Part shown: piece after piece, positions 404 through 22,674 of the stretch
How positions within the stretch are numbered: position 1 is the stretch's first letter
Layout of the letters: each line of letters opens with the position of its first letter
From: an uncultured Candidatus Saccharibacteria bacterium
Lineage (GTDB): Bacteria; Patescibacteriota; CALEFQ01; G965231055
Length of the DNA: 64,000 bases
Assembly: GCA_965231055.1 (NCBI GenBank)
Contig: OZ246411.1
Coordinates: 409,875 to 473,874 of the forward strand
Reading direction: 5' to 3'
Made by a program: the position numbers and the translations under genes
The notes under the pieces: generated by a model
The model's database searches: none
What the model was told of the DNA's origin: nothing
Seen by the model: only the letters and a program-made list of their open reading frames with translations

Positions 404-3400
404 GTGCAAATCAAAACAAAAAATATAATAATAGTAGTTGCGGCGATGGCTTTCGTCGTAGCTATTTTGATACTGCCAAGAACTGACCTTTTCAAGACAA
501 AGGCGGCAAACAAGAAGTATGCAGTGATAGAAAGCTATGCCTGGGCACCAAACGGTGGCTGGCTTGTTTTGAATAACAACGAAACTGGGGCTGAAGCAGA
601 TGGAGTGAATCTTCAACCTATTGTGGGGGGTGGATCTATGCTTGCTAGTGGTTACGGCTTCGCACCAAATATGGGGTGGGTGAATTTTCAGGGAGTTAGT
701 CTTACTGAAAACGGAAACAAATGGGATTTTTCTGGGAGTGCCTGGGGACCAAATGCTGGTTGGGTGAACTTCAACAATGCTATAGGTGCAAATGTGTACA
801 TGGATGATGAAACTGGCGAGGTCCATGGTAGTGCCTGGTCGCCGAATAGCGGATGGATAAGTTTTTGTGACGATACTGTTTATCAGCCCGGTCAAAGTAT
901 TGAAAACTATTACTGCACCCAATTTGATATTAGTAAAGATGACGCTGCTCCAAAACTAGATAGTTTTACTTTTTCATGTGCGGGTGATCAGTTGCTTGGG
1001 GGAGCTTGCTACGATGGAGATTTTGCTTCAACGAATACGATATGGATAAGGGACAATTCTTTGGTTTATGTGGGGATTTCTGCAACAGATCAAAAAGGTG
1101 GAGCGGATGTGGCAACAGGTATGCGATATCATAAATTGTATTTGTGCCAAGATGGCAGTTGCATGGATCCAGATAAACTAAAGTATGGTGAAAGCATTAT
1201 GTTTAGAAACTATCCTCAGGAGAGATGGTATCTTTCACCGCCAATTCTCACCACATCATGGTTTGAAAATTTGGATCAATATCCCATCGCAGAATATTAT
1301 GACGATCAAAAAAACACTTATTCGGAGAGTTTTGTTGCCTCAAAAGAGCCGTTGATTTCTGGTCCGGGTAATCCTGACAATGGATTGGAGTCTGGTAGGG
1401 TCGGAGTTTATTATAATTTATTTGATAAGACGGGTAATTGGACTTGCGGAGCTTCATTTTCCCCAGGGTATTGTGATAGCGGATATGTTTTGGGAGTAGA
1501 TGTAACAAAACCAAATGTTGTGCCTGACAGTTTTGATCAGGACGGAGATGGAAATAAAATTGTAGGACCTTTCGACTATACGATACGATGGAGTATGAAT
1601 GATGAGCATTCTGGAATTGCATTTGGAGGCGTTTCTATTATAGATGTAAATGGACTTGTTAATCCTGCTGAACCAGGCAAAGCTTATAATCCAACTGGTG
1701 GGATGGGGGAAGAGTATATAGTTTTCAATACCGAAGGGGACATAGAGACTGTGTGGAGAATGGCCGGGGGTAGCTTCCCAGACGGATTGTATGATGTAAG
1801 ATTTCGGGCTACTGACAATGTTGGTAATTCAAAAGAAGTTTTAGTTGAAGATGTTGAAGTGACCAATTCTTATGGTGATACTTTGATGATAAGAGATTGT
1901 GACGGCAGTGTTCCAAAAACAAGAGTTACTCATGGTTGGGTGGATTTGGGAATGCGTCCGCCAATTCCAGCGCTTGGTGATATAACCGGAATAAGACTTA
2001 GAAATTTTGTAGAAAATCAGGGCGATGAAGAAGGGTGGGGTGAACAATACCAAGATTATTATCCGACAGGTTGGCTTGCTTATGGTCCAGATGACTATCA
2101 AAATGGTAGAGCTTATACTAGCTACTTTCCTATGCCTTCTGGTGGGATAGTGGGTGTCTGTAGCAGCGAATTAAAATGGTGGCAAGTGCCAAATTATCAA
2201 GGAGGACCTGTCAAAGTTCAGATGCAATACAAGGTTAGGGTGGGTAATAAAGATGTTTTAAGCGATATTATAACTGCTGAAATTTCTGCTCCATGGATTG
2301 ATTCAACTTATGGAAATATTCATTCCAATGCTACCGTGGGAGAATCTGCAGGGATCACTCCTGCAATGGGAAATTCAAATGCAGTATATGTGATAACTTC
2401 AGGGGGCACTATTAGACATTTCACTTCTTCACTTGGCTCTTCTGGAAATATTGAGAATATAGGAGATCTTGGATATCCTGGGGAGGATAGGGGTTTGAAT
2501 ATGAGCAATATTGATTTTGATTCTCTTAAGGGTGCTGCCAAAGAAATAGGATCCAATTTTCAGGATTATAAAATGGACAATAGTGTATTTTACAGAAACG
2601 GTAGTCTGGTTGTGAGAGAAGGTTCATTTAGTGGTAAGGGTACGGTGTTGGTTGAAGGTGATTTGCTTTTTGATGGAAATACTTTTTACGTTGATGATAC
2701 TGCGACTTCAACTGAAGAAATTGATTCAGTCGCTTTTATAGTAAAAGGCAATATTACATTTGGTGATGGAGTCAGGCATGCTGTTGGGGTTATGGTTGCT
2801 GGATTCGGAGAGCAGTCGGTTGGCAATAAGGGGGTTATAAGAACGGGTTCTTCTTCATCAAATACTAATTCATTGATTGTTCAAGGTGCGCTTATAGGTA
2901 GAAGCTTCAAATTCAACAGGGAGTCGTCCGAGGTCAATGGCACCGCTGTTTATACAGATTCTAAAAAATACTATGAGTGGGATCATGCTAGGGGTAAATT
3001 CCTACCAGCTGGTTTTATTGATAAAAAAATTATAGCCGGGTTTGCTAGAGATGGGGGAGGAGATGGCGTACACAATCGATTTATTATAGAAGAAATAAAT
3101 GGTTCTACTCCAAGCTATAGAATGTATGTAAATAACAATTTTACTAGATACAGAAATTTAAATGAAATGGGAGTTGCTAATGGAACAAAACCCGTCGCGG
3201 TATTTTCTAGCGATCTCAATAAAGATGGAAAAGATTCTACCTACCTTATTGCCTCAGATCCAATGTTTGCAAAACAAAAAATATACATATGGGAAGAGAG
3301 CAGTGATGACATTTTTACGCAAAAAAATATATTTAGAGAACTTTCTGGTGACGAAAGAAATAAATTTCCTTCGGGAAATATTAAGGGGGGTTACTCATCT

Positions 3401-3847
3401 GTTATAAAGGGGGAGAGTGTGGAAGTGGTTTGGGTTGAGGATCCAAAATTTGGAATAGCTAGATATACGAGGACATCAACAAACGATGATTTTAAAGAAA
3501 ATGGAAACATATCTTCTTTGGGTATGGGGGGTATTAGTGAGATGATAGTTTCTTATTTTGAACGAGATTTGATTAATAATGAGAATAGAGACGTAGTTTG
3601 GGCCTATACTCAACTTGGTGTAGCTGACAGTCCTACGAGATACAAGCGTCCAGAATCACAGGATTTGTTTGCTAAAACAAGTACTCTGTCAGATTATGGC
3701 GTGGGAGCAAAGATGGTGTCAGCATATTCTTATATTATGTCATCCGCAGCTGAAAGGATTATTTATGACGGTAGAGTTATCGTGAATCCACCCCCAGGAT
3801 TAAGTTCTTTACGACTTCCAAGTTTTAGTGAGGTTGCTGGTTATTAA
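404..3847 (+). CDS. large N-terminally membrane-anchored surface protein with repeated G-x-A-W-x-P-N-x-G-W-x-x-F motifs
   Basis: 1147-aa ORF; N-terminal hydrophobic helix (IIIVVAAMAFVVAILILP); four tandem copies of WAPNGGW / FAPNMGWVNF / WGPNAGWVNF / WSPNSGWISF; sits directly upstream of the pilus operon. Confidence 0.8.
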   Translation: MQIKTKNIIIVVAAMAFVVAILILPRTDLFKTKAANKKYAVIESYAWAPNGGWLVLNNNETGAEADGVNLQPIVGGGSMLASGYGFAPNMGWVNFQGVSLTENGNKWDFSGSAWGPNAGWVNFNNAIGANVYMDDETGEVHGSAWSPNSGWISFCDDTVYQPGQSIENYYCTQFDISKDDAAPKLDSFTFSCAGDQLLGGACYDGDFASTNTIWIRDNSLVYVGISATDQKGGADVATGMRYHKLYLCQDGSCMDPDKLKYGESIMFRNYPQERWYLSPPILTTSWFENLDQYPIAEYYDDQKNTYSESFVASKEPLISGPGNPDNGLESGRVGVYYNLFDKTGNWTCGASFSPGYCDSGYVLGVDVTKPNVVPDSFDQDGDGNKIVGPFDYTIRWSMNDEHSGIAFGGVSIIDVNGLVNPAEPGKAYNPTGGMGEEYIVFNTEGDIETVWRMAGGSFPDGLYDVRFRATDNVGNSKEVLVEDVEVTNSYGDTLMIRDCDGSVPKTRVTHGWVDLGMRPPIPALGDITGIRLRNFVENQGDEEGWGEQYQDYYPTGWLAYGPDDYQNGRAYTSYFPMPSGGIVGVCSSELKWWQVPNYQGGPVKVQMQYKVRVGNKDVLSDIITAEISAPWIDSTYGNIHSNATVGESAGITPAMGNSNAVYVITSGGTIRHFTSSLGSSGNIENIGDLGYPGEDRGLNMSNIDFDSLKGAAKEIGSNFQDYKMDNSVFYRNGSLVVREGSFSGKGTVLVEGDLLFDGNTFYVDDTATSTEEIDSVAFIVKGNITFGDGVRHAVGVMVAGFGEQSVGNKGVIRTGSSSSNTNSLIVQGALIGRSFKFNRESSEVNGTAVYTDSKKYYEWDHARGKFLPAGFIDKKIIAGFARDGGGDGVHNRFIIEEINGSTPSYRMYVNNNFTRYRNLNEMGVANGTKPVAVFSSDLNKDGKDSTYLIASDPMFAKQKIYIWEESSDDIFTQKNIFRELSGDERNKFPSGNIKGGYSSVIKGESVEVVWVEDPKFGIARYTRTSTNDDFKENGNISSLGMGGISEMIVSYFERDLINNENRDVVWAYTQLGVADSPTRYKRPESQDLFAKTSTLSDYGVGAKMVSAYSYIMSSAAERIIYDGRVIVNPPPGLSSLRLPSFSEVAGY

Positions 3848-3982: not shown

Positions 3983-5044
3983 ATGGGATTTTTTAGTGAA
4001 AAAACCAGTTTAGGGATCGATATAGGTACCGCAAATATCAAAATAGTGGAACTTGTTGGTTCTCAAGGTAGGGCAGAGCTGTTAACTTACGGCGCTATTG
4101 ATATAAAAGCAGATATCCTAAGAAGCGATGACCAAGGTGCCAATGAAAAGATAGCAGAGTCTTTGAAAGATCTTTTGTCCAAATCAAAAGTAAAATCTAA
4201 ATACGCGATCTCTGCATTGCCAGGTTTTTCTGTTTTTAACTCTGTTATTAAGCTTCCAGAAATGAATGAGTCTGAGATAGGATCAGCGGTGAAGTGGGAG
4301 GCTAGAAGATATGTTCCATTTCCAATAGAAAACATGGTTTTGGACTGGAAGCAGTTAAAGGATGATAAAGCGGGAGTTTTCAAGCCGGAGAACCTTGGTG
4401 GCCCGAAAAAGGAAATTCAAATATTGCTTACTGCTGCGCCTAAGAATTTGGTAAACAAATACCTCGAAATTTTTTCAATGGCTGGCTTGAAATTGAGCGC
4501 ACTTGAAACGGAGTCGTTTGCCTTGATGAGATCTCTGGTTGGAAACGATAAGTCAACAATCGCTGTCGTAAATATAGGTTCCACGGCCACTGATATAAGT
4601 GTTATCAGTAATGGTCTTCCGGTGTTAAATAGAAGTTTTGATATTGGAGGGAAGGCTATAACAAATTCTATAGCAAGTAGCCTGAACGTTAGTTTGGATA
4701 GGGCGGAGCAGTTTAAAAGAGATCTGAGCTCATCTAGTAAGATGGGTGACGAAGTTCCTGATGTTATAAAACCTATAGTTCAGGGCATTACAAATGAAAT
4801 AAAAAATACATTATCACTTTACAATGGAAGTGGTGGTAAAAATATAGAAAAAATCATTTTGACTGGTGGATCTTCCAAACTTGTGACACTACCAAGGTAT
4901 CTAAAAGACTCCTTGGGCGTAGAAGTGTTCTTAGGAAATCCTTGGGCTAGAATCAAATATCCAAAAGAAATAGATCAAGAGTTAAAAAATATATCACCAA
5001 TGTTTTCCGTGTGCGCAGGTTTAGCGTTAAGAGATATATCATAA
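3983..5044 (+). CDS. pilM: type IV pilus assembly protein PilM (actin-like ATPase fold)
   Basis: N-terminal GIDIGTANIKIVEL motif typical of PilM/FtsA-like; first gene of the pilMNO block. Confidence 0.85.
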   Translation: MGFFSEKTSLGIDIGTANIKIVELVGSQGRAELLTYGAIDIKADILRSDDQGANEKIAESLKDLLSKSKVKSKYAISALPGFSVFNSVIKLPEMNESEIGSAVKWEARRYVPFPIENMVLDWKQLKDDKAGVFKPENLGGPKKEIQILLTAAPKNLVNKYLEIFSMAGLKLSALETESFALMRSLVGNDKSTIAVVNIGSTATDISVISNGLPVLNRSFDIGGKAITNSIASSLNVSLDRAEQFKRDLSSSSKMGDEVPDVIKPIVQGITNEIKNTLSLYNGSGGKNIEKIILTGGSSKLVTLPRYLKDSLGVEVFLGNPWARIKYPKEIDQELKNISPMFSVCAGLALRDIS

Positions 5045-5047
5045 CCT

Positions 5048-5644
5048 ATGCTAAAAATAAATTTATTGCCAGATGAGGCTATAGAAAGAAAAGATCCTTT
5101 GAGGTTAAAGGCAATAGTTTTTTTTGTCGTAACTATCTTATTTGCTGGGATTTCTATGATTTGGTGCGAAACAAATGTGAGTGGCAAACAGAATCAGTTA
5201 GACAAGGTTAACGATCAGATACAAAAAATACAATCAGATATAGATCAGTATACTAGAGAATCCAAAGACGCTTCTACTTTTTCAAAACAAGCGATGGCAT
5301 TAAAAACATTGCTTAAAAATCACATTAGATGGAGTAATCTTATTGATGAATTGCAGGTTCATTCAAAGGCGGGTGTTGTGTTTACTTCTTTTGAGGGTTA
5401 TAGCGATGGGGCGTTAAATGTACAGGGAGAAGCTTCCTCTTATAGTTTGGTGGCACAGGAGATGAGGAGCTTGGAAGAGGCAACTTATAAAAACGGAGAA
5501 GAAGATGTTTTATTAGTTGATAGCATAGAGCTTTCTGACGCATCTTATGGCGTTATTGATGGATCCTCTGACGGTATAGTCAAATTTTCGATGGCAATTA
5601 AAATAAATCCAAGCATTCTATATGTATTCACTGACCAAAATTAA
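5048..5644 (+). CDS. pilN: type IV pilus assembly protein PilN
   Basis: N-terminal INLLP motif (MLKINLLPDE), single TM, coiled coil; follows pilM. Confidence 0.75.
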   Translation: MLKINLLPDEAIERKDPLRLKAIVFFVVTILFAGISMIWCETNVSGKQNQLDKVNDQIQKIQSDIDQYTRESKDASTFSKQAMALKTLLKNHIRWSNLIDELQVHSKAGVVFTSFEGYSDGALNVQGEASSYSLVAQEMRSLEEATYKNGEEDVLLVDSIELSDASYGVIDGSSDGIVKFSMAIKINPSILYVFTDQN

Positions 5645-6191
5645 AAACAAAAGAAATCTTATTTCTTACGCCCTTTTTCTTCTGGGTGCTGTTGTTTTAA
5701 TCTTTGGGATTTTTATGATCAAAGATCTTTGTTCAAAAAATTCTGACCTGAAATCAGATTTGAATCAGCAGAATATCTCACTTGATTTGAAAAAGCAGGC
5801 GCTATCAAATCTAGAAAGCTTTTTAGAGGAATATAAAACTTCAGCTTCTTCAATTAGCAAAGTAAAATATGCTGTGCCGGAGAAAAAAGATATTCCAGAA
5901 ATCCTAACTCAAATGGAAGTTATTGCTGAGCGAAACTCTTTACAGTTTGATTCCATTACATTTGGATCGTCTTCTGGATCTGAGATGGTTGTTTCTTCGT
6001 CGGAAACAATTCCAGAGGGAGTTGAGAAACTCGACTTGGAACTCAAGGTTGTTGGATCACAAGATAACTTCAAAAAATACATTAAAGAAATCGAAGAAAA
6101 TATTAGAATTATAGACATAGAAAAGATTTCCATAGTTGCTGGTGTCTACAATTTAAATACTAGTGTTTACTATCTAAAAACAAATGAATAA
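5622..6191 (+). CDS. pilO: type IV pilus assembly protein PilO-like
   Basis: N-terminal TM helix plus coiled coil; overlaps the pilN stop; position in operon. Confidence 0.6.
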   Translation: MYSLTKIKNKRNLISYALFLLGAVVLIFGIFMIKDLCSKNSDLKSDLNQQNISLDLKKQALSNLESFLEEYKTSASSISKVKYAVPEKKDIPEILTQMEVIAERNSLQFDSITFGSSSGSEMVVSSSETIPEGVEKLDLELKVVGSQDNFKKYIKEIEENIRIIDIEKISIVAGVYNLNTSVYYLKTNE

Positions 6192-6426
6192 AAGAACCTT
6201 AATACTTTTTATTATCTTGATAGCTGTAGTAGTTTTTGCTTTGTATTATTGGATAAGCAATGAAAGCACCAAGCAAGAAGCTGATGGCAATGTTTATATT
6301 TCGGGGGATACTACTCAGATTGACCTGGATTTTTTGGATGATGAGAATTTTAAAGAATTAAAAGTTTACAATGATCTTCCAGTTCGTTCTGGTGAAACTG
6401 GAAATTTCTCTCTTTTTGGATATTAA
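6184..6426 (+). CDS. small single-TM protein (possible PilP-like accessory)
   Basis: 80-aa ORF with N-terminal TM helix, overlapping the pilO stop and ending 1 nt before the pilB ATG. Confidence 0.5.
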   Translation: MNKRTLILFIILIAVVVFALYYWISNESTKQEADGNVYISGDTTQIDLDFLDDENFKELKVYNDLPVRSGETGNFSLFGY

Positions 6427-6427
6427 A

Positions 6428-8179
6428 ATGCAAAACACAAACACAAAAGATTTATTAGCTATTCTGGTGCAAAATGGAGCCCTACCTCAAAGCAGGGAGG
6501 AGTTTGTTAGAAATGAGAGTTTAAAAACAGGTAAATCCTATGAAGAAGTTATGACTCAGGGGCAATTAGTTGATCCCAAAAATATCGCCAAAGCCAGAGC
6601 CACTCTGTTGGGATTTGATTTTGTTGAGCTTTTGGGTAAAAAAATAGCCGATGATGTTTTGAAAATCATACCAAGAACTGTGGCTGAAAATTACGGATTA
6701 GTGCCATTTGATTTGAAAGATGGTGAGGTGAGCGTGGCAATGAAAAATCCTTCAAATATACAGGCATTAGAGTCTTTGGACTTTGCGCTGAGAGGACAGG
6801 GTAACCTCCGATACAAAATTTTTGTTGTGGATGGTGAGGGTTTGAGCTGGGGTTTGAGACAATATGAAAACCTAAAAGAAGAGGTCGGTGAAGTCTTGAG
6901 AGATGCAGACAAGGAACTCGAAAGAGCTGAGGATGTAGATTTTAGCGGAAAAGGTGATATAGCAAAGGTCGTTGAGAAGGCCCCTGTTAGCAAGGCAATA
7001 GATATAATTTTGAAACATTCCATAGAAGCAGGTGCTAGTGATATTCATGTAGATCCGATGAGTGATTCGGTTAGAATTCGGTATAGAGTAGATGGTGAAT
7101 TGAAAACCGCGATATCTCTTTCCAAAGAAATACACAATGCCCTTGTTGCAAGGATTAAAATACTTTCCAATTTAAAAATAGATGAAAACAGAATTCCACA
7201 AGATGGAAGATTTCATTCAACGATAAACAATAAAGAAGTTGATTTTAGAGTTTCTATTTTGCCCACAGTTAATGGTGAAAAAGTTGTTATGAGAGTCCTT
7301 GATTCCTCTGAGGGAGTACATACGCTCAAAGATTTGGGGATACTTGGAAGCAGATTAAACATAGTTCAAGACTATATAAAAAAAGATCACGGCATGTTGC
7401 TCGTGACTGGACCTACTGGTTCTGGAAAATCCACTACTTTGTATTCTGTTTTGGGAATGATAAATAATTCCAAGGTAAATATCGTGACACTAGAGGATCC
7501 CGTAGAATATTTTATACCAGGAATTTCTCAGTCACAGATAAATCCAAAAATGGGATTTTCGTTTGCTTCTGGGCTAAGATATGTTTTGAGACAAGATCCA
7601 GATGTGATTATGATAGGGGAGATTAGAGATAAAGAAACCGCTGAGATGGCTATTCATGCTTCTTTGACTGGTCACGTGGTGCTATCTACCCTTCACACAA
7701 ACAGCGCTTCGGGAGCTGTGCCAAGATTACTTGATATGGGTATAGAAAAATACCTTCTAATGTCTGCTCTTGATGTTATTGTGGCACAGAGATTGGTAAG
7801 AAAATTATGTAATTATTGCAAGAAAAAAGTTAAGATTACACCAGAAGAAAAAATGATTATAGATAAAGAGTGGAATCAAATCACGGATGAAGAGAAAAAA
7901 CTTTTGGGATTAGGTGATATGAAAATAGTGGAAGAAGTGTATCACGCAAACGGATGCGAGAAATGCGGGGGAGAAGGATATAGGGGTAGAATTGGTATTT
8001 TTGAAATTATTTCAATGACCGAAGATGTCCAAAATGTTGTAGCTGAAAGTCCATCGTCTATAAGGATAAAAGAGGCTGCAAGAAAAGATGGCTTTATGAC
8101 TATGATGGAAGACGGTGTTAGCAAGGTTGCTATGGGACTAACTACAGTAGAAGAAGTGCTCAGAGCAACTCAAGAATAA
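6428..8179 (+). CDS. pilB: type IV pilus assembly ATPase PilB (GspE family)
   Basis: T2SE N-terminal domain, Walker A GPTGSGKST, Asp/His boxes, tetracysteine CNYC...CEKCGG motif; start chosen at the ATG at 6428 rather than the upstream in-frame M at 6371. Confidence 0.9.
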   Translation: MQNTNTKDLLAILVQNGALPQSREEFVRNESLKTGKSYEEVMTQGQLVDPKNIAKARATLLGFDFVELLGKKIADDVLKIIPRTVAENYGLVPFDLKDGEVSVAMKNPSNIQALESLDFALRGQGNLRYKIFVVDGEGLSWGLRQYENLKEEVGEVLRDADKELERAEDVDFSGKGDIAKVVEKAPVSKAIDIILKHSIEAGASDIHVDPMSDSVRIRYRVDGELKTAISLSKEIHNALVARIKILSNLKIDENRIPQDGRFHSTINNKEVDFRVSILPTVNGEKVVMRVLDSSEGVHTLKDLGILGSRLNIVQDYIKKDHGMLLVTGPTGSGKSTTLYSVLGMINNSKVNIVTLEDPVEYFIPGISQSQINPKMGFSFASGLRYVLRQDPDVIMIGEIRDKETAEMAIHASLTGHVVLSTLHTNSASGAVPRLLDMGIEKYLLMSALDVIVAQRLVRKLCNYCKKKVKITPEEKMIIDKEWNQITDEEKKLLGLGDMKIVEEVYHANGCEKCGGEGYRGRIGIFEIISMTEDVQNVVAESPSSIRIKEAARKDGFMTMMEDGVSKVAMGLTTVEEVLRATQE

Positions 8180-8182
8180 AAT

Positions 8183-8560
8183 ATGAACAAGCATCCAAAA
8201 ATAGCTATAGTAGAAGATGATGAGTTTATACTCAATATTTATGAGACTAAATTTAATGAAGAAAAATTTGAAGTTTTTTCTTCTGATAACGGTGCTTCTG
8301 GCATAGAGCTTATAAAAAAAGAAATTCCTGATATTGTGCTTTTGGATATACTATTACCTAAAAAAGATGGATACGAAGTTTTGGCCGAAATAAAGAAGTT
8401 AGAGAAGACTAAAAATATTCCAGTTATTCTGCTTACGAATATGGGTCAAAAGGATAGCATAGAGAAGGGTATGAAATTGGGAGCTAGCGATTATCTCATT
8501 AAAGCTCATTTCACTCCGTCTGAGGTTGTAGGAAAAGTAAAAAGTATTTTGTTAAAATAA
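8183..8560 (+). CDS. single-domain response regulator receiver (CheY/PilH-like)
   Basis: IAIVEDDEF...DIVLLDILLP...DYLIKAHF receiver-domain signature; embedded between pilB and pilT. Confidence 0.8.
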   Translation: MNKHPKIAIVEDDEFILNIYETKFNEEKFEVFSSDNGASGIELIKKEIPDIVLLDILLPKKDGYEVLAEIKKLEKTKNIPVILLTNMGQKDSIEKGMKLGASDYLIKAHFTPSEVVGKVKSILLK

Positions 8561-8569
8561 AATTTTATT

Positions 8570-9643
8570 ATGGCAAATAACGCACAAGCAAAACTAGAAA
8601 AACTAATGTCATTTGTGGCGGAGCAGGGTGGATCGGATCTTCATCTTGATCCAGGGAAGCCTCCTATTATCAGAGTTGATAGAAAACTGATTGAAGTTTC
8701 TGGGGAGAGTGTTATGTCTTCTGAGGATACTCTTGAAGCCGCTAAGTTTTTACTCGGAGATGAGAGATATAAAATTTTTGAAAAAAATAGAGAGTTTGAT
8801 TTTTCATACGCATATGGTGAAAAAGCAAGATTTAGAATAAATACTTATTACAAAATGGGATCGGTCGCAATAGCTATGCGTCTTATTCCCAGAGCCATTA
8901 GAACTATTGAGGAGCTTGGGCTTCCTTCGGTTATAAAGCAATTCGCAAAAGCAGCTCAGGGGCTTGTTATTGTTGTTGGTCCTTCTGGTCATGGAAAATC
9001 TACTACGCTAGCCTCACTCATTGATATTATAAATCATGAGAGGGCTGATCATATAATCACTATCGAGGATCCTATCGAATACATATTTACTCCAGACAAA
9101 AGCTTGATAGCTCAAAGAGAAGTGAATCATGATACCAATTCTTTTTCCAATGCCTTGAAATCGGTTCTTAGAGAAGATGCGAACGTAGTCATGGTGGGTG
9201 AAATGAGAGATCTTGAAACTATTTCTACCACAATTACTGTTGCAGAAACTGGTCATTTGGTCTTTGCTACTTTGCACACAAATGATGCTGCGCAGACTAT
9301 AGATAGAATGATAGATGTGTTTCCTCCATATCAGCAAAATCAAGTCCGGTCTCAGCTTGCAAATATCATCACTGGAGTGGTCTCTCAAAGACTCTTGCCG
9401 AAACTGGGTGGCGGTAGAATGGTAGTTACTGAAATTATGTTTGCAACCCCTGCGATAAGAAACCTAATCAGAGAGGGCAAGACTTACCAAATAAACAGTG
9501 TGATACAGACTAGCGCGGAAGAGGGGATGATCTCTATGGACAAGTCGCTTTCGGAACTCGTGAGAGCAGAAAAAATTTCTATGGATAGTGCTTTGATGTA
9601 TGCAATGAATAAAGATAGTGTGCTCTCTATGTTGAAATCGTAA
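8570..9643 (+). CDS. pilT: twitching motility ATPase PilT
   Basis: N-terminal DLHL..GKPP motif, Walker A GPSGHGKSTT, PilT-type AQREV region. Confidence 0.9.
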   Translation: MANNAQAKLEKLMSFVAEQGGSDLHLDPGKPPIIRVDRKLIEVSGESVMSSEDTLEAAKFLLGDERYKIFEKNREFDFSYAYGEKARFRINTYYKMGSVAIAMRLIPRAIRTIEELGLPSVIKQFAKAAQGLVIVVGPSGHGKSTTLASLIDIINHERADHIITIEDPIEYIFTPDKSLIAQREVNHDTNSFSNALKSVLREDANVVMVGEMRDLETISTTITVAETGHLVFATLHTNDAAQTIDRMIDVFPPYQQNQVRSQLANIITGVVSQRLLPKLGGGRMVVTEIMFATPAIRNLIREGKTYQINSVIQTSAEEGMISMDKSLSELVRAEKISMDSALMYAMNKDSVLSMLKS

Positions 9644-9697: not shown

Positions 9698-10903
9698 GTG
9701 CCAGTATTTCATTACACAGCAAAGGATAACAATGGTAAGACTCGTTACGGAGAGATAGATTCTGCAAGTGACCAAGTCGCTGCAGATGTTTTGCGTTCAA
9801 GAGGATTGATTGTTGTTGAACTAACAGAAGAAGGAAAGCAAGTTCTAAAAAGAGACATTCAGCCTATCGAAAGAATTACGCTAAAAGATATAGCTATTTT
9901 TTCTAGGCAGCTTTCTACTATGGTAGCTGCGAGCATGCCGCTCACCGGATCTCTCGAGGCGCTAGCTCAAAATACTACCAAGGTTAAGATGAGAAAGATT
10001 ATCGAAAAACTTGCTAAGGATGTTGACGGTGGAGTGAGGTTTTCTATAGCTTTAGCTTCTTACCCAAAGGTTTTTGATGATTTTTATGTAAGCGTGATCA
10101 AGTCTGGAGAGGTAAGTGGAGAAATGGATAGTTCTTTGCTTTACTTGGCTGAGCAGCTTGAGAAAGATTATGACCTGCTTTCTAAACTTAGGGGGGCTAT
10201 GATATACCCTTTGTTTGTTGTAGGGATGTTTTTGGCCGTAGGGGCCTTGATGGTTATCTCTGTTATTCCTCAGCTCAAAAAAGTTTTTGAAGGAATGGAT
10301 CAAGAACTTCCTGCTATGACTCAGGCGCTGTTAAATACGAGTGATTTCATGAGAGGGTATTGGTGGTTAATTCTGGCGGTGGTCGTGTTTGTCGTTTTGG
10401 GGTATAAATGGTATAATAGCACTAAAGAAGGTCATAAAAATATAGACAAAATTAAAATCAGACTCCCCATCTTCGGTAAGATTTTACAAAAAGTTTATGC
10501 AGTGAGATTTGCTAGAAGTTTTTATACTTTGCTAGTTGGTGGGATATCCGTGGTTGAGGCTATAAAAGTTTCAGGTTCTGTGGTGGGAAATGTGGTTTAT
10601 AAAGAAATTGCAGAAGAAGCAGCGAAAAGAGTAGAAAATGGAGACACTGTCGCGAGTGCATTTGAATTACATTCAGAAATACCTTCAATGATGACTCAGA
10701 TGATTAGGGTGGGGGAGAAAACAGGAAAACTCTCTGATGTGCTTGAAAAAGTGGGAGATTTCTATAATCGTGAAGTAAATAACGAAATTTCAAATCTAAC
10801 AGTAACCATAGAGCCATTGATTATGATTGTTCTGGGGGTGGGCGTTTTTATACTTATGGCAGCCATAATTATGCCGATATATAATATTGCTAATAGCTTC
10901 TGA
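9698..10903 (+). CDS. pilC: type IV pilus inner-membrane platform protein PilC (GspF family)
   Basis: two GspF-type repeats, 3 TM segments, position after pilT. Confidence 0.85.
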   Translation: MPVFHYTAKDNNGKTRYGEIDSASDQVAADVLRSRGLIVVELTEEGKQVLKRDIQPIERITLKDIAIFSRQLSTMVAASMPLTGSLEALAQNTTKVKMRKIIEKLAKDVDGGVRFSIALASYPKVFDDFYVSVIKSGEVSGEMDSSLLYLAEQLEKDYDLLSKLRGAMIYPLFVVGMFLAVGALMVISVIPQLKKVFEGMDQELPAMTQALLNTSDFMRGYWWLILAVVVFVVLGYKWYNSTKEGHKNIDKIKIRLPIFGKILQKVYAVRFARSFYTLLVGGISVVEAIKVSGSVVGNVVYKEIAEEAAKRVENGDTVASAFELHSEIPSMMTQMIRVGEKTGKLSDVLEKVGDFYNREVNNEISNLTVTIEPLIMIVLGVGVFILMAAIIMPIYNIANSF

Positions 10904-11010: not shown

Positions 11011-11051
11011 AAAATAAATACAAAATAATATGAAAGGGGGTGACAAGAAAA

Positions 11052-11417
11052 ATGTTTAACAAAAAAGGTTTTACTCTCGTTGAGCTCTTGGTGGTTATTG
11101 CTATTATCGGTATTTTGGCCGCTATAGTAATAGTCAACTTGGCTACAGCAAGAGACAAGGCAAACGACGCACAAGCAACAGCTTATGCTCGCAATGCCGC
11201 AACAGCTCTAGAAATGTCTAGAGATGATAATGAAACTTATCCAGCTGCTTGGGATTTGAGTGGAGATCAGGCTGATGCTCTTGGAACATATATAGGAGTA
11301 TTTGATTGGCCAGCTGGTACCTCGGGAGCTTATACCTATGTAGATGATACCCATTACGATATAGCAGTAACTTTGAATAGTGGATCATTCGCATGCGATG
11401 AAACTGGTTGTAGATAA
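11052..11417 (+). CDS. pilA: type IV major pilin (prepilin with class III signal peptide)
   Basis: MFNKKGFTLVELLVVIAIIGILAAI N-methylation/cleavage motif; strong SD AAAGGGGGTGA 8 nt upstream of the ATG at 11052; the ORF track starts at an upstream GTG (11040). Confidence 0.9.
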   Translation: MFNKKGFTLVELLVVIAIIGILAAIVIVNLATARDKANDAQATAYARNAATALEMSRDDNETYPAAWDLSGDQADALGTYIGVFDWPAGTSGAYTYVDDTHYDIAVTLNSGSFACDETGCR

Positions 11418-11458: not shown

Positions 11459-12247
11459 ATGTCAATGATCTATTATTATATTTTACTTTTTGTATTTGGA
11501 TTGATATTTGGTAGTTTTGCCAACGTCCTTATTTTTAGACTCAAAAAAAGAGAGGACTTGGTGTTTAAAAGATCATATTGTCCCACTTGCAAAAAGACTC
11601 TAAAATGGTACGACCTGATTCCCGTAATCAGCTTTTTTATTTTGCGTGGAATTTGCAGAAACTGCAGGAAAAAAATCAGCATTCAGTATCCAGTGGTAGA
11701 ACTTTGTACTGGTTTGATGTTTGTGGTTATGGGCTACTGGGCAAATTCGCAAAATTTAGTAGGGTGGTATTATGCAGTATCTTTGATATTTGGTTTGTAT
11801 ATGGCTTTTGTTTTTATTTCGCTATTTGTCTACGACCTTAAGTATATGGAGCTACCTGACTCCATTATGCTTCCATCTATAGCTGTGGCTATTTTTTATT
11901 TTTTAACAGTGTATCCCGATAGGTGGCTTTCGCTTGTTATAGGAATTGGAGTTTCTTTTATATTTTTTCTTTTGATTTTTGTTTTTTCGAAAGGCAAGGC
12001 GATGGGTGGGGGAGATGTGAAGCTCGCGATACTTATCGGAGCTATTTGTGTATGGCCCGGAACTTTGTTGGCATTGCTTTTGGCTTTTGTAGGTGGAGCG
12101 ATTATTGGAATTATTCTTGTTATGATAAAGAAAAAGAATATGAAAAGCGAAATACCTTTCGGAATTTTCATAATTCCATCAATAGTAATAGTGATGATAT
12201 GGGGAGACTTGATAGTTGATTGGTATTTAAAAATGCTTTCTTTATAA
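11459..12247 (+). CDS. pilD: prepilin peptidase (A24 family)
   Basis: N-terminal CPTC...CRNC zinc-finger-like tetracysteine, multiple TM helices, GGGDVKL region. Confidence 0.85.
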   Translation: MSMIYYYILLFVFGLIFGSFANVLIFRLKKREDLVFKRSYCPTCKKTLKWYDLIPVISFFILRGICRNCRKKISIQYPVVELCTGLMFVVMGYWANSQNLVGWYYAVSLIFGLYMAFVFISLFVYDLKYMELPDSIMLPSIAVAIFYFLTVYPDRWLSLVIGIGVSFIFFLLIFVFSKGKAMGGGDVKLAILIGAICVWPGTLLALLLAFVGGAIIGIILVMIKKKNMKSEIPFGIFIIPSIVIVMIWGDLIVDWYLKMLSL

Positions 12248-12252
12248 AAAAT

Positions 12253-12897
12253 ATGTATTTTATTAAATCACAAAAAGGATTTTCCCTAATAGAAATGCTC
12301 GTAGTAATAGCTATGATAGGCATACTCTCCGTACTTGTGTTTGCAGATTTTAGGGGTCAGGGGCAAAACACTCTTTTTAAATATACCTCGGAAGATGTTT
12401 TGGGTGCAGCTATTCAGGTGCGAGAGTTTTCAAAATCAGGAAAAATACTTTCCACAATCAATCAGGTTCCGCTGGGTGGATATGGAATATTTTTTGATAT
12501 AGGATCTGGCGTAATATCTCAATTCGCCGATACAAATAATAATGATATTTTTGATGAAAAAAGTAAAAACGAATTTATTGCCAAGGTGAGTTACAATTCA
12601 AATTTCATGATTAGTGAATTCTATCTGGGAAAAAATACCTTAGTGCCTGTAGATAGTGAGCTTGATAAAGAATACTTTGATGATAAGTCGGGCAAGTCTC
12701 AGCCATCTAAAAGTAAATTTTACGTGATTTTTGAGAATCCCAATGGTGACATGCTGATAGTTGACGAAAAGGGTCAAAGCGATTATGCCTCCGCATCACT
12801 AGGATTACTAAATAAAACAACGGGTCAAAAATTGTACTTAAATTTTTCAAAACAATCTGGTGCCATAAGCATAGATGAAAATGTTATTAAAAAATAA
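12253..12897 (+). CDS. minor pilin / pseudopilin (prepilin-type N-terminal domain)
   Basis: MYFIKSQKGFSLIEMLVVIAMIGILS; start chosen at the internal Met giving a short leader. Confidence 0.75.
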   Translation: MYFIKSQKGFSLIEMLVVIAMIGILSVLVFADFRGQGQNTLFKYTSEDVLGAAIQVREFSKSGKILSTINQVPLGGYGIFFDIGSGVISQFADTNNNDIFDEKSKNEFIAKVSYNSNFMISEFYLGKNTLVPVDSELDKEYFDDKSGKSQPSKSKFYVIFENPNGDMLIVDEKGQSDYASASLGLLNKTTGQKLYLNFSKQSGAISIDENVIKK

Positions 12898-12916
12898 AGC
12901 TAAAAAGATTGGTTTT

Positions 12917-13480
12917 ATGACCAATAATAAAGGATTTTCACTTATAGAGGCACTTGTTGCTATCTCGGTTGTTGTAGTTGGAATTGGTGGAGGATTGATG
13001 ATAACTGCAAACTCTATAAAGGTTGGAACACTTGGTAGTCAAGAATTTATTGCTTCAAATTTAGCTCAGGAGGGGGTAGAGTTTACGCGAGCTTTTCGCG
13101 ATAAGTATTGGCTGGAGGGACTTGATTATGATCAGATGTCTTCACGAGGATACATACCAAAAGAAGGAGTGTCTAGAAGTTACAGAGTACATATTAATTC
13201 TCGCGGAAAGCTTGTTATGGAGAGTGTATTGTATTCAGATCCTTTTGCCAATGGCTTTTTGCTTTATAATTCTCCTGGGGGAGATTTGGATGGTGTTTTT
13301 ACTCATGATATATCTAAAACCGAATCAATATTTTATAGAAAAGTTGATATAAGAAGAGCTGGCGTGGGAGATGAGGATTTTTTGCAAGGAGGTTTGATAG
13401 TGACGTGCGTAGTTAGCTGGAAAACAAATACGGGAAATAAATCAGTAGAATTACAAGATGTTTTATATGATTGGAAATAA
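12917..13480 (+). CDS. minor pilin / pseudopilin (prepilin-type N-terminal domain)
   Basis: MTNNKGFSLIEALVAISVVVVGIGG; start at an internal Met of the listed ORF. Confidence 0.7.
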   Translation: MTNNKGFSLIEALVAISVVVVGIGGGLMITANSIKVGTLGSQEFIASNLAQEGVEFTRAFRDKYWLEGLDYDQMSSRGYIPKEGVSRSYRVHINSRGKLVMESVLYSDPFANGFLLYNSPGGDLDGVFTHDISKTESIFYRKVDIRRAGVGDEDFLQGGLIVTCVVSWKTNTGNKSVELQDVLYDWK

Positions 13481-14009
13481 AAAACAAAACAATAAGAGAG
13501 GATTTACCATTGTCGAGATGGTAGTTGCGGTTACTATTTTTTCTGTTGTCGTTGTTATTGCTATAGGTTCTTTTTTGGCCGTACTCACAGCAAACACCAA
13601 AAGCTTGGGGGTCAAAAATATTCAACAAGATGCAAGGTATATAATGGATCAAATAGCTCACGACGTGAGATCTGGAACTATCGATTATGTTAATCATGAT
13701 GACAAGCTTTCAACTTTGCATATAGTTTTGCGTGATGGAAGTAGGGTGGAGTATAGCTTTGTAGTTTTGGGATCAGAAGATGGTGCGGGCAATATTTTTT
13801 ATAAAGACGCCAATGGAAATAGCACAAAGATAAATTCGGATAAAGTTGATATTATCGATATGAAGTTTGCGGTTTATCCCAATTCAAGCTCCGAATTATC
13901 AAGCGAACAACCGAGAGTAACTATTATAGGAGTTTTTCAAAGCAAAGATGATGCAAAATCAAGATTTAGGGTTCAAACATCTGTTGTCTCTAGACAATAT
14001 ATAAAATAA
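13467..14009 (+). CDS. minor pilin / pseudopilin (prepilin-type N-terminal domain)
   Basis: MIGNKKQNNKRGFTIVEMVVAVTIFSVVVV. Confidence 0.7.
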   Translation: MIGNKKQNNKRGFTIVEMVVAVTIFSVVVVIAIGSFLAVLTANTKSLGVKNIQQDARYIMDQIAHDVRSGTIDYVNHDDKLSTLHIVLRDGSRVEYSFVVLGSEDGAGNIFYKDANGNSTKINSDKVDIIDMKFAVYPNSSSELSSEQPRVTIIGVFQSKDDAKSRFRVQTSVVSRQYIK

Positions 14010-14012
14010 ATT

Positions 14013-14810
14013 ATGAATTCTAGGGGATCTACATTGATTATAGGTTTGTTGATACTTTCAGCTGTGATATCAACTAGTATTTTGATAGGTGGAATAGTTT
14101 TTAGAGAACTCGGGGTGGCTTTTAGCATTTCAAAGTCTCAAAATGCTTATTACGCTGCTGAATCTGGATCTGAGATGGTGCTGTATCAATGGGTAAAAAA
14201 TGGTAGCGTAAAATTTGATAAGGGGTATTTGAAAGATGTTGATACCGTCTGGGGCGTGAAATATCAAAATTCTGCTATAAATCTTTCGGGGGACCTGGGA
14301 CAGCATCAAACCAAAGAAATTCCACTATACAATGTTGTTGACGATGAGCCTCTAGATGGATTGCATGAAGCTACTGTTTACTGGGGTGGTGGGGGTAGAA
14401 TGGAGTATAGTCTTTTTTCTTGGAATGATGATGAGCAAATAAGTTTTTTTACGAAAGGCGGAGAAATAAGCAGGGGAGTCATGAATGCGACGAGCTGTGT
14501 TTCTTCGGGTGAATATGATTGTCAAATTAGCTTTAAAAATCTAGATGATACAAAGAAATATGTAGTTAGGTTTAGGCCTATGTGTGATTTTAGCTATGGT
14601 TTGTGTGGTAATTCTTGGATCTATAGCTTTGAGGCCTTGGATACTTTTGGTGATCAAATAGAGCTTCCCATAGGATTTATAGCTACTTCTACGGGAGAAT
14701 CGTCAAGTGAATATAGAAGAAAAATCGAGTCGATTCTTCCGCTAAGAGGAGAAACTTTTGGTATATTTGATTATGGTATATTCTCGGACGAAGCCCTAAA
14801 GCTTAATTAA
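14013..14810 (+). CDS. PilX N-terminal domain protein (pilus-associated minor pilin-like)
   Basis: RGSTLIIGLLILSAVISTS...SQNAYYAAESGSEMVLYQW resembles the PilX N-terminal consensus; last gene of the pilus operon. Confidence 0.6.
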   Translation: MNSRGSTLIIGLLILSAVISTSILIGGIVFRELGVAFSISKSQNAYYAAESGSEMVLYQWVKNGSVKFDKGYLKDVDTVWGVKYQNSAINLSGDLGQHQTKEIPLYNVVDDEPLDGLHEATVYWGGGGRMEYSLFSWNDDEQISFFTKGGEISRGVMNATSCVSSGEYDCQISFKNLDDTKKYVVRFRPMCDFSYGLCGNSWIYSFEALDTFGDQIELPIGFIATSTGESSSEYRRKIESILPLRGETFGIFDYGIFSDEALKLN

Positions 14811-22349: not shown

Positions 22350-22426
22350 CGCGGGGTGGAGCAGCTTGGTAGCTCGTCGGGCTCATAACCCGAAGGCCGT
22401 TGGTTCAAATCCAACCCCCGCAACCA
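22350..22426 (+). tRNA. initiator tRNA-fMet (anticodon CAT)
   Basis: C1:A72 mismatch at the acceptor-stem end, three consecutive G-C pairs closing the anticodon stem (TCGGG/CCCGA), CTCATAA loop, ACCA 3' end encoded. Confidence 0.85.
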
Positions 22427-22453
22427 AATTTATTTATTGACCAAATGTTTTTT

Positions 22454-22532
22454 GGGCGCGTGGTGTAGCCTGGTCTAACACGTCTCCCTGTCACGGAGAA
22501 GACCGCCGGTTCGAATCCGGTCGCGCCCGCCA
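22454..22532 (+). tRNA. tRNA-Asp (anticodon GTC)
   Basis: acceptor GGGCGCG/CGCGCCC, anticodon loop CTGTCAC, T-arm GGTTCGAATCC, discriminator G plus encoded CCA. Confidence 0.85.
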
Positions 22533-22543
22533 TAGAAATAATT

Positions 22544-22571
22544 AGTGTTCAGTTTTCAGTATTCAGTTACC
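22544..22571 (+). repeat. TTCAGT-rich repeat (family B) upstream of the third tRNA
   Basis: AGTGTTCAGTTTTCAGTATTCAGTTACC; related copies at 22688, 43349-43466, 43662-43717, 57061-57138. Confidence 0.6.
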
Positions 22572-22597
22572 TAAACTATAAACTCATATTTTATCAT

Positions 22598-22674
22598 GGC
22601 AGGGTAGCTCAGTTGGTTAGAGCGTGGGACTCATAAGCCCAAGGTCGTGGGTTCGATCCCCACCCCTGCTACCA
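22598..22674 (+). tRNA. tRNA with CAT anticodon: elongator Met or Ile2 (lysidine), not distinguishable by eye
   Basis: GGCAGGG...CCCTGCT acceptor, GCTCAGTTGGTTAGAGC D-arm, anticodon loop CTCATAA, GGTTCGATCC T-arm, encoded CCA. Confidence 0.8.

Follow-up and report, generated by a model that had tools for sequence, protein, structure and literature searches.

Introduction

The PilY1/PilC proteins of Pseudomonas, Myxococcus and Neisseria (PF05567) are large proteins with a Sec-type signal and no pilin N-terminus that are encoded in pilus clusters, in which one conserved domain is joined to a variable, adhesin-like remainder and for which docking on minor pilins has been proposed. Another arrangement is found in modular minor pilins such as PilB and PilC of Streptococcus sanguinis, PilX1 and PilX2 of TM7x (PMC11623550) and SEML1_0116 of Southlakia, which carry lectin-like or propeller modules on type IV pili (T4P) of monoderm bacteria or Patescibacteria. 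T4P are conserved across the Patescibacteria, and the few cultivated members need them for host attachment, twitching motility and survival (PMC10633639, PMC11623550). The published parts lists name PilB, PilT, PilC, PilM, PilN, PilO, PilD and pilins, and a gene ahead of pilM is mentioned in none of them (PMC6744442, PMC7143001). In this study, we describe a gene in that position at 404..3847 (+) of a 64-kb stretch of contig OZ246411.1 (the window, by which we mean this whole stretch of DNA), where it heads a T4P cluster. The gene is very probably a giant member of an unnamed extracytoplasmic family that constitutes the conserved first gene of the secretin-less T4P operon in most Patescibacteria. 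With moderate confidence, we read its product of 1147 amino acids (aa), the window protein, as a Sec-exported, non-pilin, pilus-associated adhesin that is an analogue of PilY1/PilC and no homologue of them.

The window protein, or the family to which it belongs, shares with PilY1/PilC each of the features named above, minor-pilin docking being in both cases a proposal. However, there is no similarity in sequence or fold: the window protein has no match to PF05567 at E<=1, no PilY1 structure is among the Foldseek matches in the PDB, and the C-terminal beta-propeller of PilY1/PilC stands in contrast to a predicted beta-solenoid and a Y-D-G-R...P-P-G tail here. The gene also lies after pilX in those systems, whereas here it precedes pilM in a host without an outer membrane or secretin. 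With regard to the modular minor pilins, the Gly/Trp-rich repeat (GW) module of the window protein is likewise found grafted into a pilin (P0099), but the window protein itself lacks a class III (PilD-cleaved) signal and a pilin fold, so that it would be attached non-covalently and would not polymerise into the filament. The Pam pili of Candidate Phyla Radiation (CPR) bacteria were also considered and set aside as an unrelated system. A search of the literature brought up no paper on the gene that precedes pilM, on the GW repeat or on the Pfam family DUF7305.

Domain architecture of the window protein and its family

The gene and the parts that we distinguish in its product are the following.

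404..3847 (+): whole gene, GTG start, 1147 aa, from the list of open reading frames (ORFs) and the translation
404..505 (+): predicted Sec signal peptide, aa 1-34, with a K-rich start, hydrophobic aa 7-25 and a T-K-A/A site
533..865 (+): GW-repeat module, four G-x-A-W-x-P-N-x-G-W-x-x-F units
884..2263 (+): insert 1, aa 161-620, specific to the giant subfamily and aligned in giant relatives only
2276..2938 (+): conserved module, aa 625-845, predicted beta-solenoid, starting A-P-W-x5-G-N-I-H
2939..3736 (+): insert 2, aa 846-1111, specific to the giant subfamily
3737..3835 (+): C-terminal family-signature motif, aa 1112-1144, A-E-R-I-I-Y-D-G-R-V-I-V-N-P-P-P-G-L, then a 15-residue tail to the stop

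A HMMER search of 1.84 billion representative proteins, for which the query was a profile built from the window protein and its first relatives, returned five full-length members of 1127-1161 aa and one fragment. The 3006 matches at E<=0.001 fell within two distinct modules, the GW repeats at the N-terminus and the equivalent of aa 625-845, the latter being the C-terminal end of many proteins of 400-850 aa. These proteins have in common an N-terminal signal, GW repeats (typical unit G-W-A-W-S-E-N-I-G-W-x-S-L-N-C), a middle region that is rich in Cys or varies in other ways, and a terminal motif, E-R-I-I-Y-D-G-R-x3-N-x-P-P-G, after which come 12-22 residues. The form Y-[DQEN]-G-R-x3-[NS]-x-[PA]-P-G, also followed by 12-22 residues, is present in about half of the best 150 matches, nearly all of them matched via the solenoid module. 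A hidden Markov model (HMM) built from 20 short members, with the giants excluded, aligns with the window protein over four collinear segments at E 1.8e-54 (aa 5-96, 103-168, 625-845 at E 5.7e-34, and 1112-1144 at E 6.7e-10), and the window protein therefore consists of the family core plus two large inserts. In the short members insert 2 is missing and the solenoid passes directly into the C-terminal motif. Family members are usually 500-850 aa long, within a range of 370 to >1970 aa, and the giant relatives P0003 and P0004 have 25-29% identity to the window protein. Judged by sequence, then, the window protein is an expanded member of a large family and no one-off giant. In an indexed search, 63 of 63 relatives were without Pfam domains, and nearly all of the named ones are called "hypothetical protein".

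The four GW units of the window protein (aa 44-56, 83-95, 111-123 and 142-154) follow the pattern [GS]-x-[AG]-[WF]-x-P-N-x-G-W-x-x-[FL]. Their PN.GW core occurs four times in the 1147 aa, against a mean of 0.0084 per shuffle in 20,000 shuffles of the protein. A preliminary description of this DNA had reported four copies of a repeat that it could not assign to a named family; the motif positions and the shuffle test bear out the number, and Pfam-A and NCBIfam gave no match for the repeat. The core was not found outside the protein in the six frames of the window, and no tandem repeat was found at the DNA level beneath the protein repeats. We also observed GW repeats, up to 13 copies, in many secreted proteins that are not members of the family (P0010, P0011, P0014, P0088 and others), which combine them with TSP3, MopE, PKD and Ig domains and some of which have signal peptides unlike those of Patescibacteria. 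On the translated proteins collected here, the GW repeat is a widespread unnamed extracellular repeat.

By hydropathy, aa 7-25 are the sole strongly hydrophobic stretch of the window protein. This agrees with the single N-terminal helix on which the preliminary description had based its view of an N-anchored protein, but a permanent anchor is doubtful in light of a conserved cleavage-like site, which in the window protein reads T-K-A/A-N-K-K (aa 34/35). A (V/A/I/L)-x-A site 2-13 residues past the hydrophobic region occurs in 54 of the 55 members whose N-terminus is complete and whose hydrophobic region is clear, and the first recognised GW repeat usually begins about 8 residues beyond the site. 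This suggests that the N-terminal helix is a Sec signal that is cleaved off and does not anchor the protein in the membrane. In the NCBI gene model (P0001, 1133 aa) the protein begins at Met15, so that the K-rich start is lost together with half of the hydrophobic region (window 404-445); the GTG start at 404 matches the N-termini of the family better. No pilin features were found in the window protein, which has neither a G/[FM]-T-L-x-E class III signal nor an N_methyl match.

Across the family the C-terminal module is constant and the remainder is variable. The accessory domains include an FG-GAP propeller (P0097), a ConA-like lectin (P0039), PKD (P0090) and Ig_Rha78A_N (L047). Matches that fall short of the Pfam cut-off are a PKD in P0195 and discoidin (F5/8 type C) in P0013 and P0090. 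P0097, P0039 and L047 all lie directly upstream of pilM. In addition, P0099 (L123 651-1637, on a contig of 1.8 kb with a second pilin-like gene next to it) is a genuine type IV pilin (P-G/L-T-L-I-E-L-I) with four GW units in its globular part, which indicates that the GW module can be carried on the filament.

Synteny with the pilus operon

When species-representative genomes were scanned with the C-terminal module, 35 loci were obtained. At 31 of these loci, the next gene after the family gene on the same strand is pilM, and the order continues as pilM-N-O-B-RR-T-C-pilin-pilD (RR, response regulator); the remaining 4 contigs stop within about 1.5 kb, where adjacency is not judgeable. The loci that carry a specific name are from Buchanan-, Kerfeld-, Komeili- and Portnoybacteria or from a "Patescibacteria group". 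An independent test was seeded with PilM on metagenome contigs and comprised 60 loci with at least 700 bp upstream of pilM. A family member stands directly upstream on the same strand in 49 of these (gaps to pilM of -36 to +258 bp, lengths of 537 to >1971 aa), while 5 loci have a divergent gene upstream, so that pilM is first, and 6 have other + strand ORFs that the family HMM does not recognise. All three full-length relatives whose surroundings were read show the adjacency. The giant relatives P0003 and P0004 are encoded directly upstream of pilM-pilN-pilO-small ORF-pilB, and P0083, whose composition suggests a high-GC genome, has the same arrangement upstream of pilM.

The adjacency that the preliminary description had noted in the window is thus conserved in relatives (31/35 and 49/60 loci), and synteny with the pilus genes has not been lost in them. 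It is extremely improbable that an unrelated surface protein lies next to the pilus operon by chance. Adjacency and orientation hold down to about 42% PilM identity and across many candidate phyla. Moreover, the genes upstream of the family member vary from locus to locus and pilM downstream is constant, which indicates that the conserved unit is the family gene together with pilM and what follows.

Two further observations concern the loci themselves. Several species-representative metagenome-assembled genomes titled "uncultured Gammaproteobacteria bacterium" (L004, L009, L010, L013, L018 and others) contain a pilus operon typical of Patescibacteria, family gene and response regulator included, and their titles look mislabelled. 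In the Buchananbacteria-like loci L004-L021, the frames that match PilN are about 360-540 aa from stop to stop, compared with 198 aa in the window.

The pilus cluster of the window

Pfam and the ORF list bear out a complete, co-oriented pilus cluster right downstream of the gene, as the preliminary description had it. Its members are the following.

3983-5044 (+): pilM (Pfam PilM_2, 1.4e-52)
5048-5644 (+): pilN, 198 aa (Pfam PilN, 1.4e-4)
5622-6191 (+): pilO (Pfam PilO, 1.2e-8)
6184-6426 (+): 80-aa ORF with one membrane helix, between pilO and pilB (from the translation)
6371-8179 (+): pilB (Pfam T2SSE)
8183-8560 (+): receiver-only response regulator (Pfam Response_reg)
8570-9643 (+): pilT (Pfam T2SSE)
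9698-10903 (+): pilC (Pfam T2SSF)
11040-11417 (+): major pilin, K-K-G/F-T-L-V-E-L (Pfam N_methyl)
11459-12247 (+): pilD prepilin peptidase (Pfam A24_N_bact, Peptidase_A24)
12220-14009 (+): three minor pilins (Pfam N_methyl in all three)
14013-14810 (+): PilX-like ORF, 265 aa, with an N-terminal hydrophobic segment and no Pfam match

The gap of 135 bp between the gene and pilM contains no terminator-like site on the + strand. ORFs of 80-118 aa occupy the slot between pilO and pilB in the loci L001, L002, L121, L124 and L125, none of them with a Pfam family, and the small ORF in this slot may be a PilP-like component. The 265-aa ORF is, by its position, probably a PilX/GspK-like fourth minor pilin. 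The three minor pilins and the PilX-like ORF of the window are all small and no adhesive module was found in them. Secretin or N0 domains (PilQ) gave no Pfam match in the window protein or in any ORF of the cluster.

It has to be considered whether the protein is an envelope-bound accessory of the pilus machine, in which an uncleaved anchor or wall-binding GW repeats would tie PilMNO to the peptidoglycan or S-layer or line the passage of the pilus, replacing PilP, PilQ or TsaP in a cell that has no outer membrane. At the start of the operon the gene is tightly coupled to pilM, with overlaps or very short gaps in several loci, which would fit such a part, as would the lack of a secretin in these operons (see also Meheust 2019). 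The GW module and the solenoid are moreover both conserved, which is what constant partners would lead one to expect. However, a length that varies from 370 to >1970 aa and the swapping of lectin, propeller and PKD domains are unusual for a stoichiometric component, and the cleavage-like site kept in 54 of 55 members does not favour an anchor. In addition, at least 5 of the 60 PilM-seeded loci, as well as the T4P1 locus of Southlakia (Saccharibacterium), begin with pilM after a divergent gene, ychF in the case of Southlakia, which implies that a working pilus needs no family gene there. The Southlakia pilus has been reported to be essential, and motility attributed to it has been observed. As there is no family gene in front of pilM in Southlakia, the family appears dispensable for crossing the wall as such, although this is a single comparison that covers the locus only and does not exclude a copy elsewhere in the genome. 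In this organism, a GspK/TadG-like minor pilin carries a galactose-binding-like domain. Taken with the points on its side, we regard a role as machine accessory as unlikely.

Several other features of the window and its relatives were observed. The receiver-only response regulator is kept between pilB and pilT in most of the Patescibacteria operons examined. Nearly all genes in the first 60 kb of the window lie on the + strand, and the GC skew there is +0.13 to +0.29; past 60 kb, where genes change strand, it is about 0. This pattern resembles the strand G/C disparity of Microgenomates UBA1400 genomes (PMC7143001). The sole Rfam matches in the window are a cluster of tRNA-Met, tRNA-Asp and tRNA-Met at 22350-22674.

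Predicted structure and similarity searches

AlphaFold2 (AF2) models of the window protein had a mean predicted local distance difference test score (pLDDT) of 28 with an alignment of 4 sequences and 48 with 64 sequences. The N-terminal helix is confined to aa 5-23. Residues 95-160 (pLDDT 85-91) are modelled as beta-hairpins formed from GW units, aa 630-845 (pLDDT 74-97) as successive rungs of strands of 3-8 residues, that is, a beta-solenoid, and aa 1113-1140 (pLDDT 75-90) as a strand and a short helix. The inserts, aa 161-620 and 846-1111, are mostly below pLDDT 40, apart from values of 56-67 at aa 461-488. Insert 1 possibly contains an Ig-like domain around aa 460-497; an OmpL47-type match at aa 460-479 had an E of 0.0048, far under its cut-off. 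With respect to the repeats, the beta-propeller or beta-helix about which the preliminary description had asked is not what AF2 gives, which is stacked hairpins and no propeller. A PQQ or WD40 propeller of a known kind is likewise not indicated, as Pfam and NCBIfam gave no match and the hairpins are not blades.

No credible match of the window protein was found in Pfam-A, NCBIfam or PDB sequences, and a CHU_C match at E 0.088 was rejected as it lies far under the cut-off. Three nearly pure GW-repeat proteins (P0016, P0032 and P0036) also had no match in Pfam or NCBIfam, including the CW_binding_1 and Listeria GW models, and this indicates that the GW repeat is unnamed in both libraries. It resembles the CW_binding_1 and Listeria GW modules in being a short Gly/Trp-rich repeat with predicted hairpins in secreted proteins, but it differs from them in its motif, G-x-A-W-S-x-N-x-G-W-I-x-F, and in its spacing, and has no Pfam match. 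A profile search of the PDB with the short-family alignment gave chance matches only, on the Cys-rich region.

Foldseek, for which the query was the whole model including the unmodelled inserts, found no significant match in the PDB. The best PDB match was 5uyt_B, a DUF3494 ice-binding beta-helix (E 0.015, probability 0.72, TM-score 0.21), with an autotransporter passenger and bactofilin among the lower ones. In BFVD a DUF3494 protein was matched at a probability of 0.51, which is a weak pointer, and the remaining BFVD matches, with TM-scores <=0.17 and root-mean-square deviations >=30 A, were rejected as meaningless. No Pfam Ice_binding match was found in the window protein or in 64 family members. 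In a scan at E<=1, the only Pfam family that recurred was DUF7305 (PF23981), in 5 of the 64 members (best E 0.0013) and always under its gathering cut-off of 27 bits; the match in P0155 (17.5 bits, aa 377-454) lies on the solenoid core, and the window protein had none. The DUF3494 ice-binding-like beta-helix and DUF7305 are thus the only recurring weak pointers for the solenoid, all of them sub-threshold.

Many secreted right-handed beta-helices are polysaccharide-active enzymes. For this reason we considered a glycan-degrading enzyme, with a lyase- or hydrolase-like solenoid and carbohydrate-binding GW repeats, which would let the pilus through the wall of its own cell or attack the envelope of the host where the two make contact. 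Besides the prediction of a beta-solenoid at pLDDT 74-97, it has in its favour the charged residues D704, R839, E1117, D1122 and R1124, each kept in at least 90% of family members. Nevertheless, we hold this to be improbable, since no lyase or hydrolase family was matched in Pfam, NCBIfam or PDB sequences and the Foldseek matches are to non-enzymatic beta-helices and not significant. Moreover, the His of G-N-I-H is replaced by Tyr in most members, so that this His is no conserved catalytic residue.

ComZ of Thermus thermophilus is a pilin with a large beta-solenoid that binds DNA. By analogy, the window protein might be the DNA receptor of a competence pilus that captures DNA for nucleotide scavenging, as a beta-solenoid is tied to T4P in both cases, the conserved module here being a predicted one, and Patescibacteria pili have been proposed in the literature to serve DNA uptake. 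However, ComZ has a pilin N-terminus, which the window protein lacks, and the latter is acidic (D+E 12.4% versus K+R 8.1%), which counts against DNA binding. Foldseek returned neither ComZ nor any other solenoid-bearing competence protein, the only competence match being the Thermus pilin TT_C0855 at E >2, and the accessory domains of the relatives are of lectin or adhesin type and not nucleic-acid-binding. We therefore consider a DNA receptor very improbable.

Possible role of the protein in the pilus

The reading that we favour is that of a pilus-associated adhesin, which, or a tip protein, the preliminary description had also suggested. In its favour, the analysis shows membership in the family, linkage to the operon, modularity of the domains and the presence of the GW module on a pilin, besides the small minor pilins of the window with no adhesive module of their own; the galactose-binding-like domain on a minor pilin of Southlakia is suggestive. 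The protein would be exported by Sec and its signal peptide would be cut after Ala34. The mature protein would then dock on the minor-pilin complex that primes the pilus, via the beta-solenoid (aa 625-845) and the C-terminal cap (aa 1112-1144); the three minor pilins and the PilX-like ORF are the proposed partners in this docking. Extension driven by PilB would bring the protein outward on the pilus, where the GW beta-hairpin module and the lineage-specific inserts may attach to a ligand, probably a glycan, on the surface of a host or partner cell, and retraction driven by PilT would draw the cells together. Every step of this mechanism, a location at the pilus tip included, is one that we infer.

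Several points weigh against this reading. Firstly, the gene lies at the 5' end with pilMNO, about 8 kb from the minor pilins, whereas pilY1 of Pseudomonas and Myxococcus lies with the minor pilins. Secondly, the conservation of the GW module is no less compatible with a constant partner, such as the cell's own wall, than with a host ligand that varies. Thirdly, the divergence rate does not separate a surface adhesin from a machine part: among related loci the mean identity of the family is 47%, equal to that of the major pilin, with 33-36% for PilN/PilO and 61-66% for PilM/PilB. Finally, AF2 is confident in the conserved modules only and the fold matches are not significant, and the cleavage of the signal peptide is called by rule rather than by a trained predictor.

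Significance for the Patescibacteria

On the best-supported reading, what is new here is the architecture of a non-pilin pilus adhesin, in which the adhesin role is a proposed one. The analysis defines two unnamed modules that could be added to domain databases, one being the GW repeat of beta-hairpins and the other the solenoid together with its Y-D-G-R tail. About 80% of the sampled operons have the gene, which is unnamed and comes with interchangeable lectin, propeller and Ig domains, and this makes it an obvious candidate for the determinant of host recognition. We would tentatively suggest, as a view less well founded than the adhesin reading itself, that the family might be an unrecognised accessory part of the secretin-less T4P of Patescibacteria, in which a fixed docking module (the solenoid and the Y-D-G-R...P-P-G tail) is combined with exchangeable receptor-binding domains that set which host an epibiont can grab, and that lineages without the family, e.g., Saccharibacteria, put a lectin domain on a minor pilin instead. 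The family also offers a handle for the prediction of host range from metagenomes.

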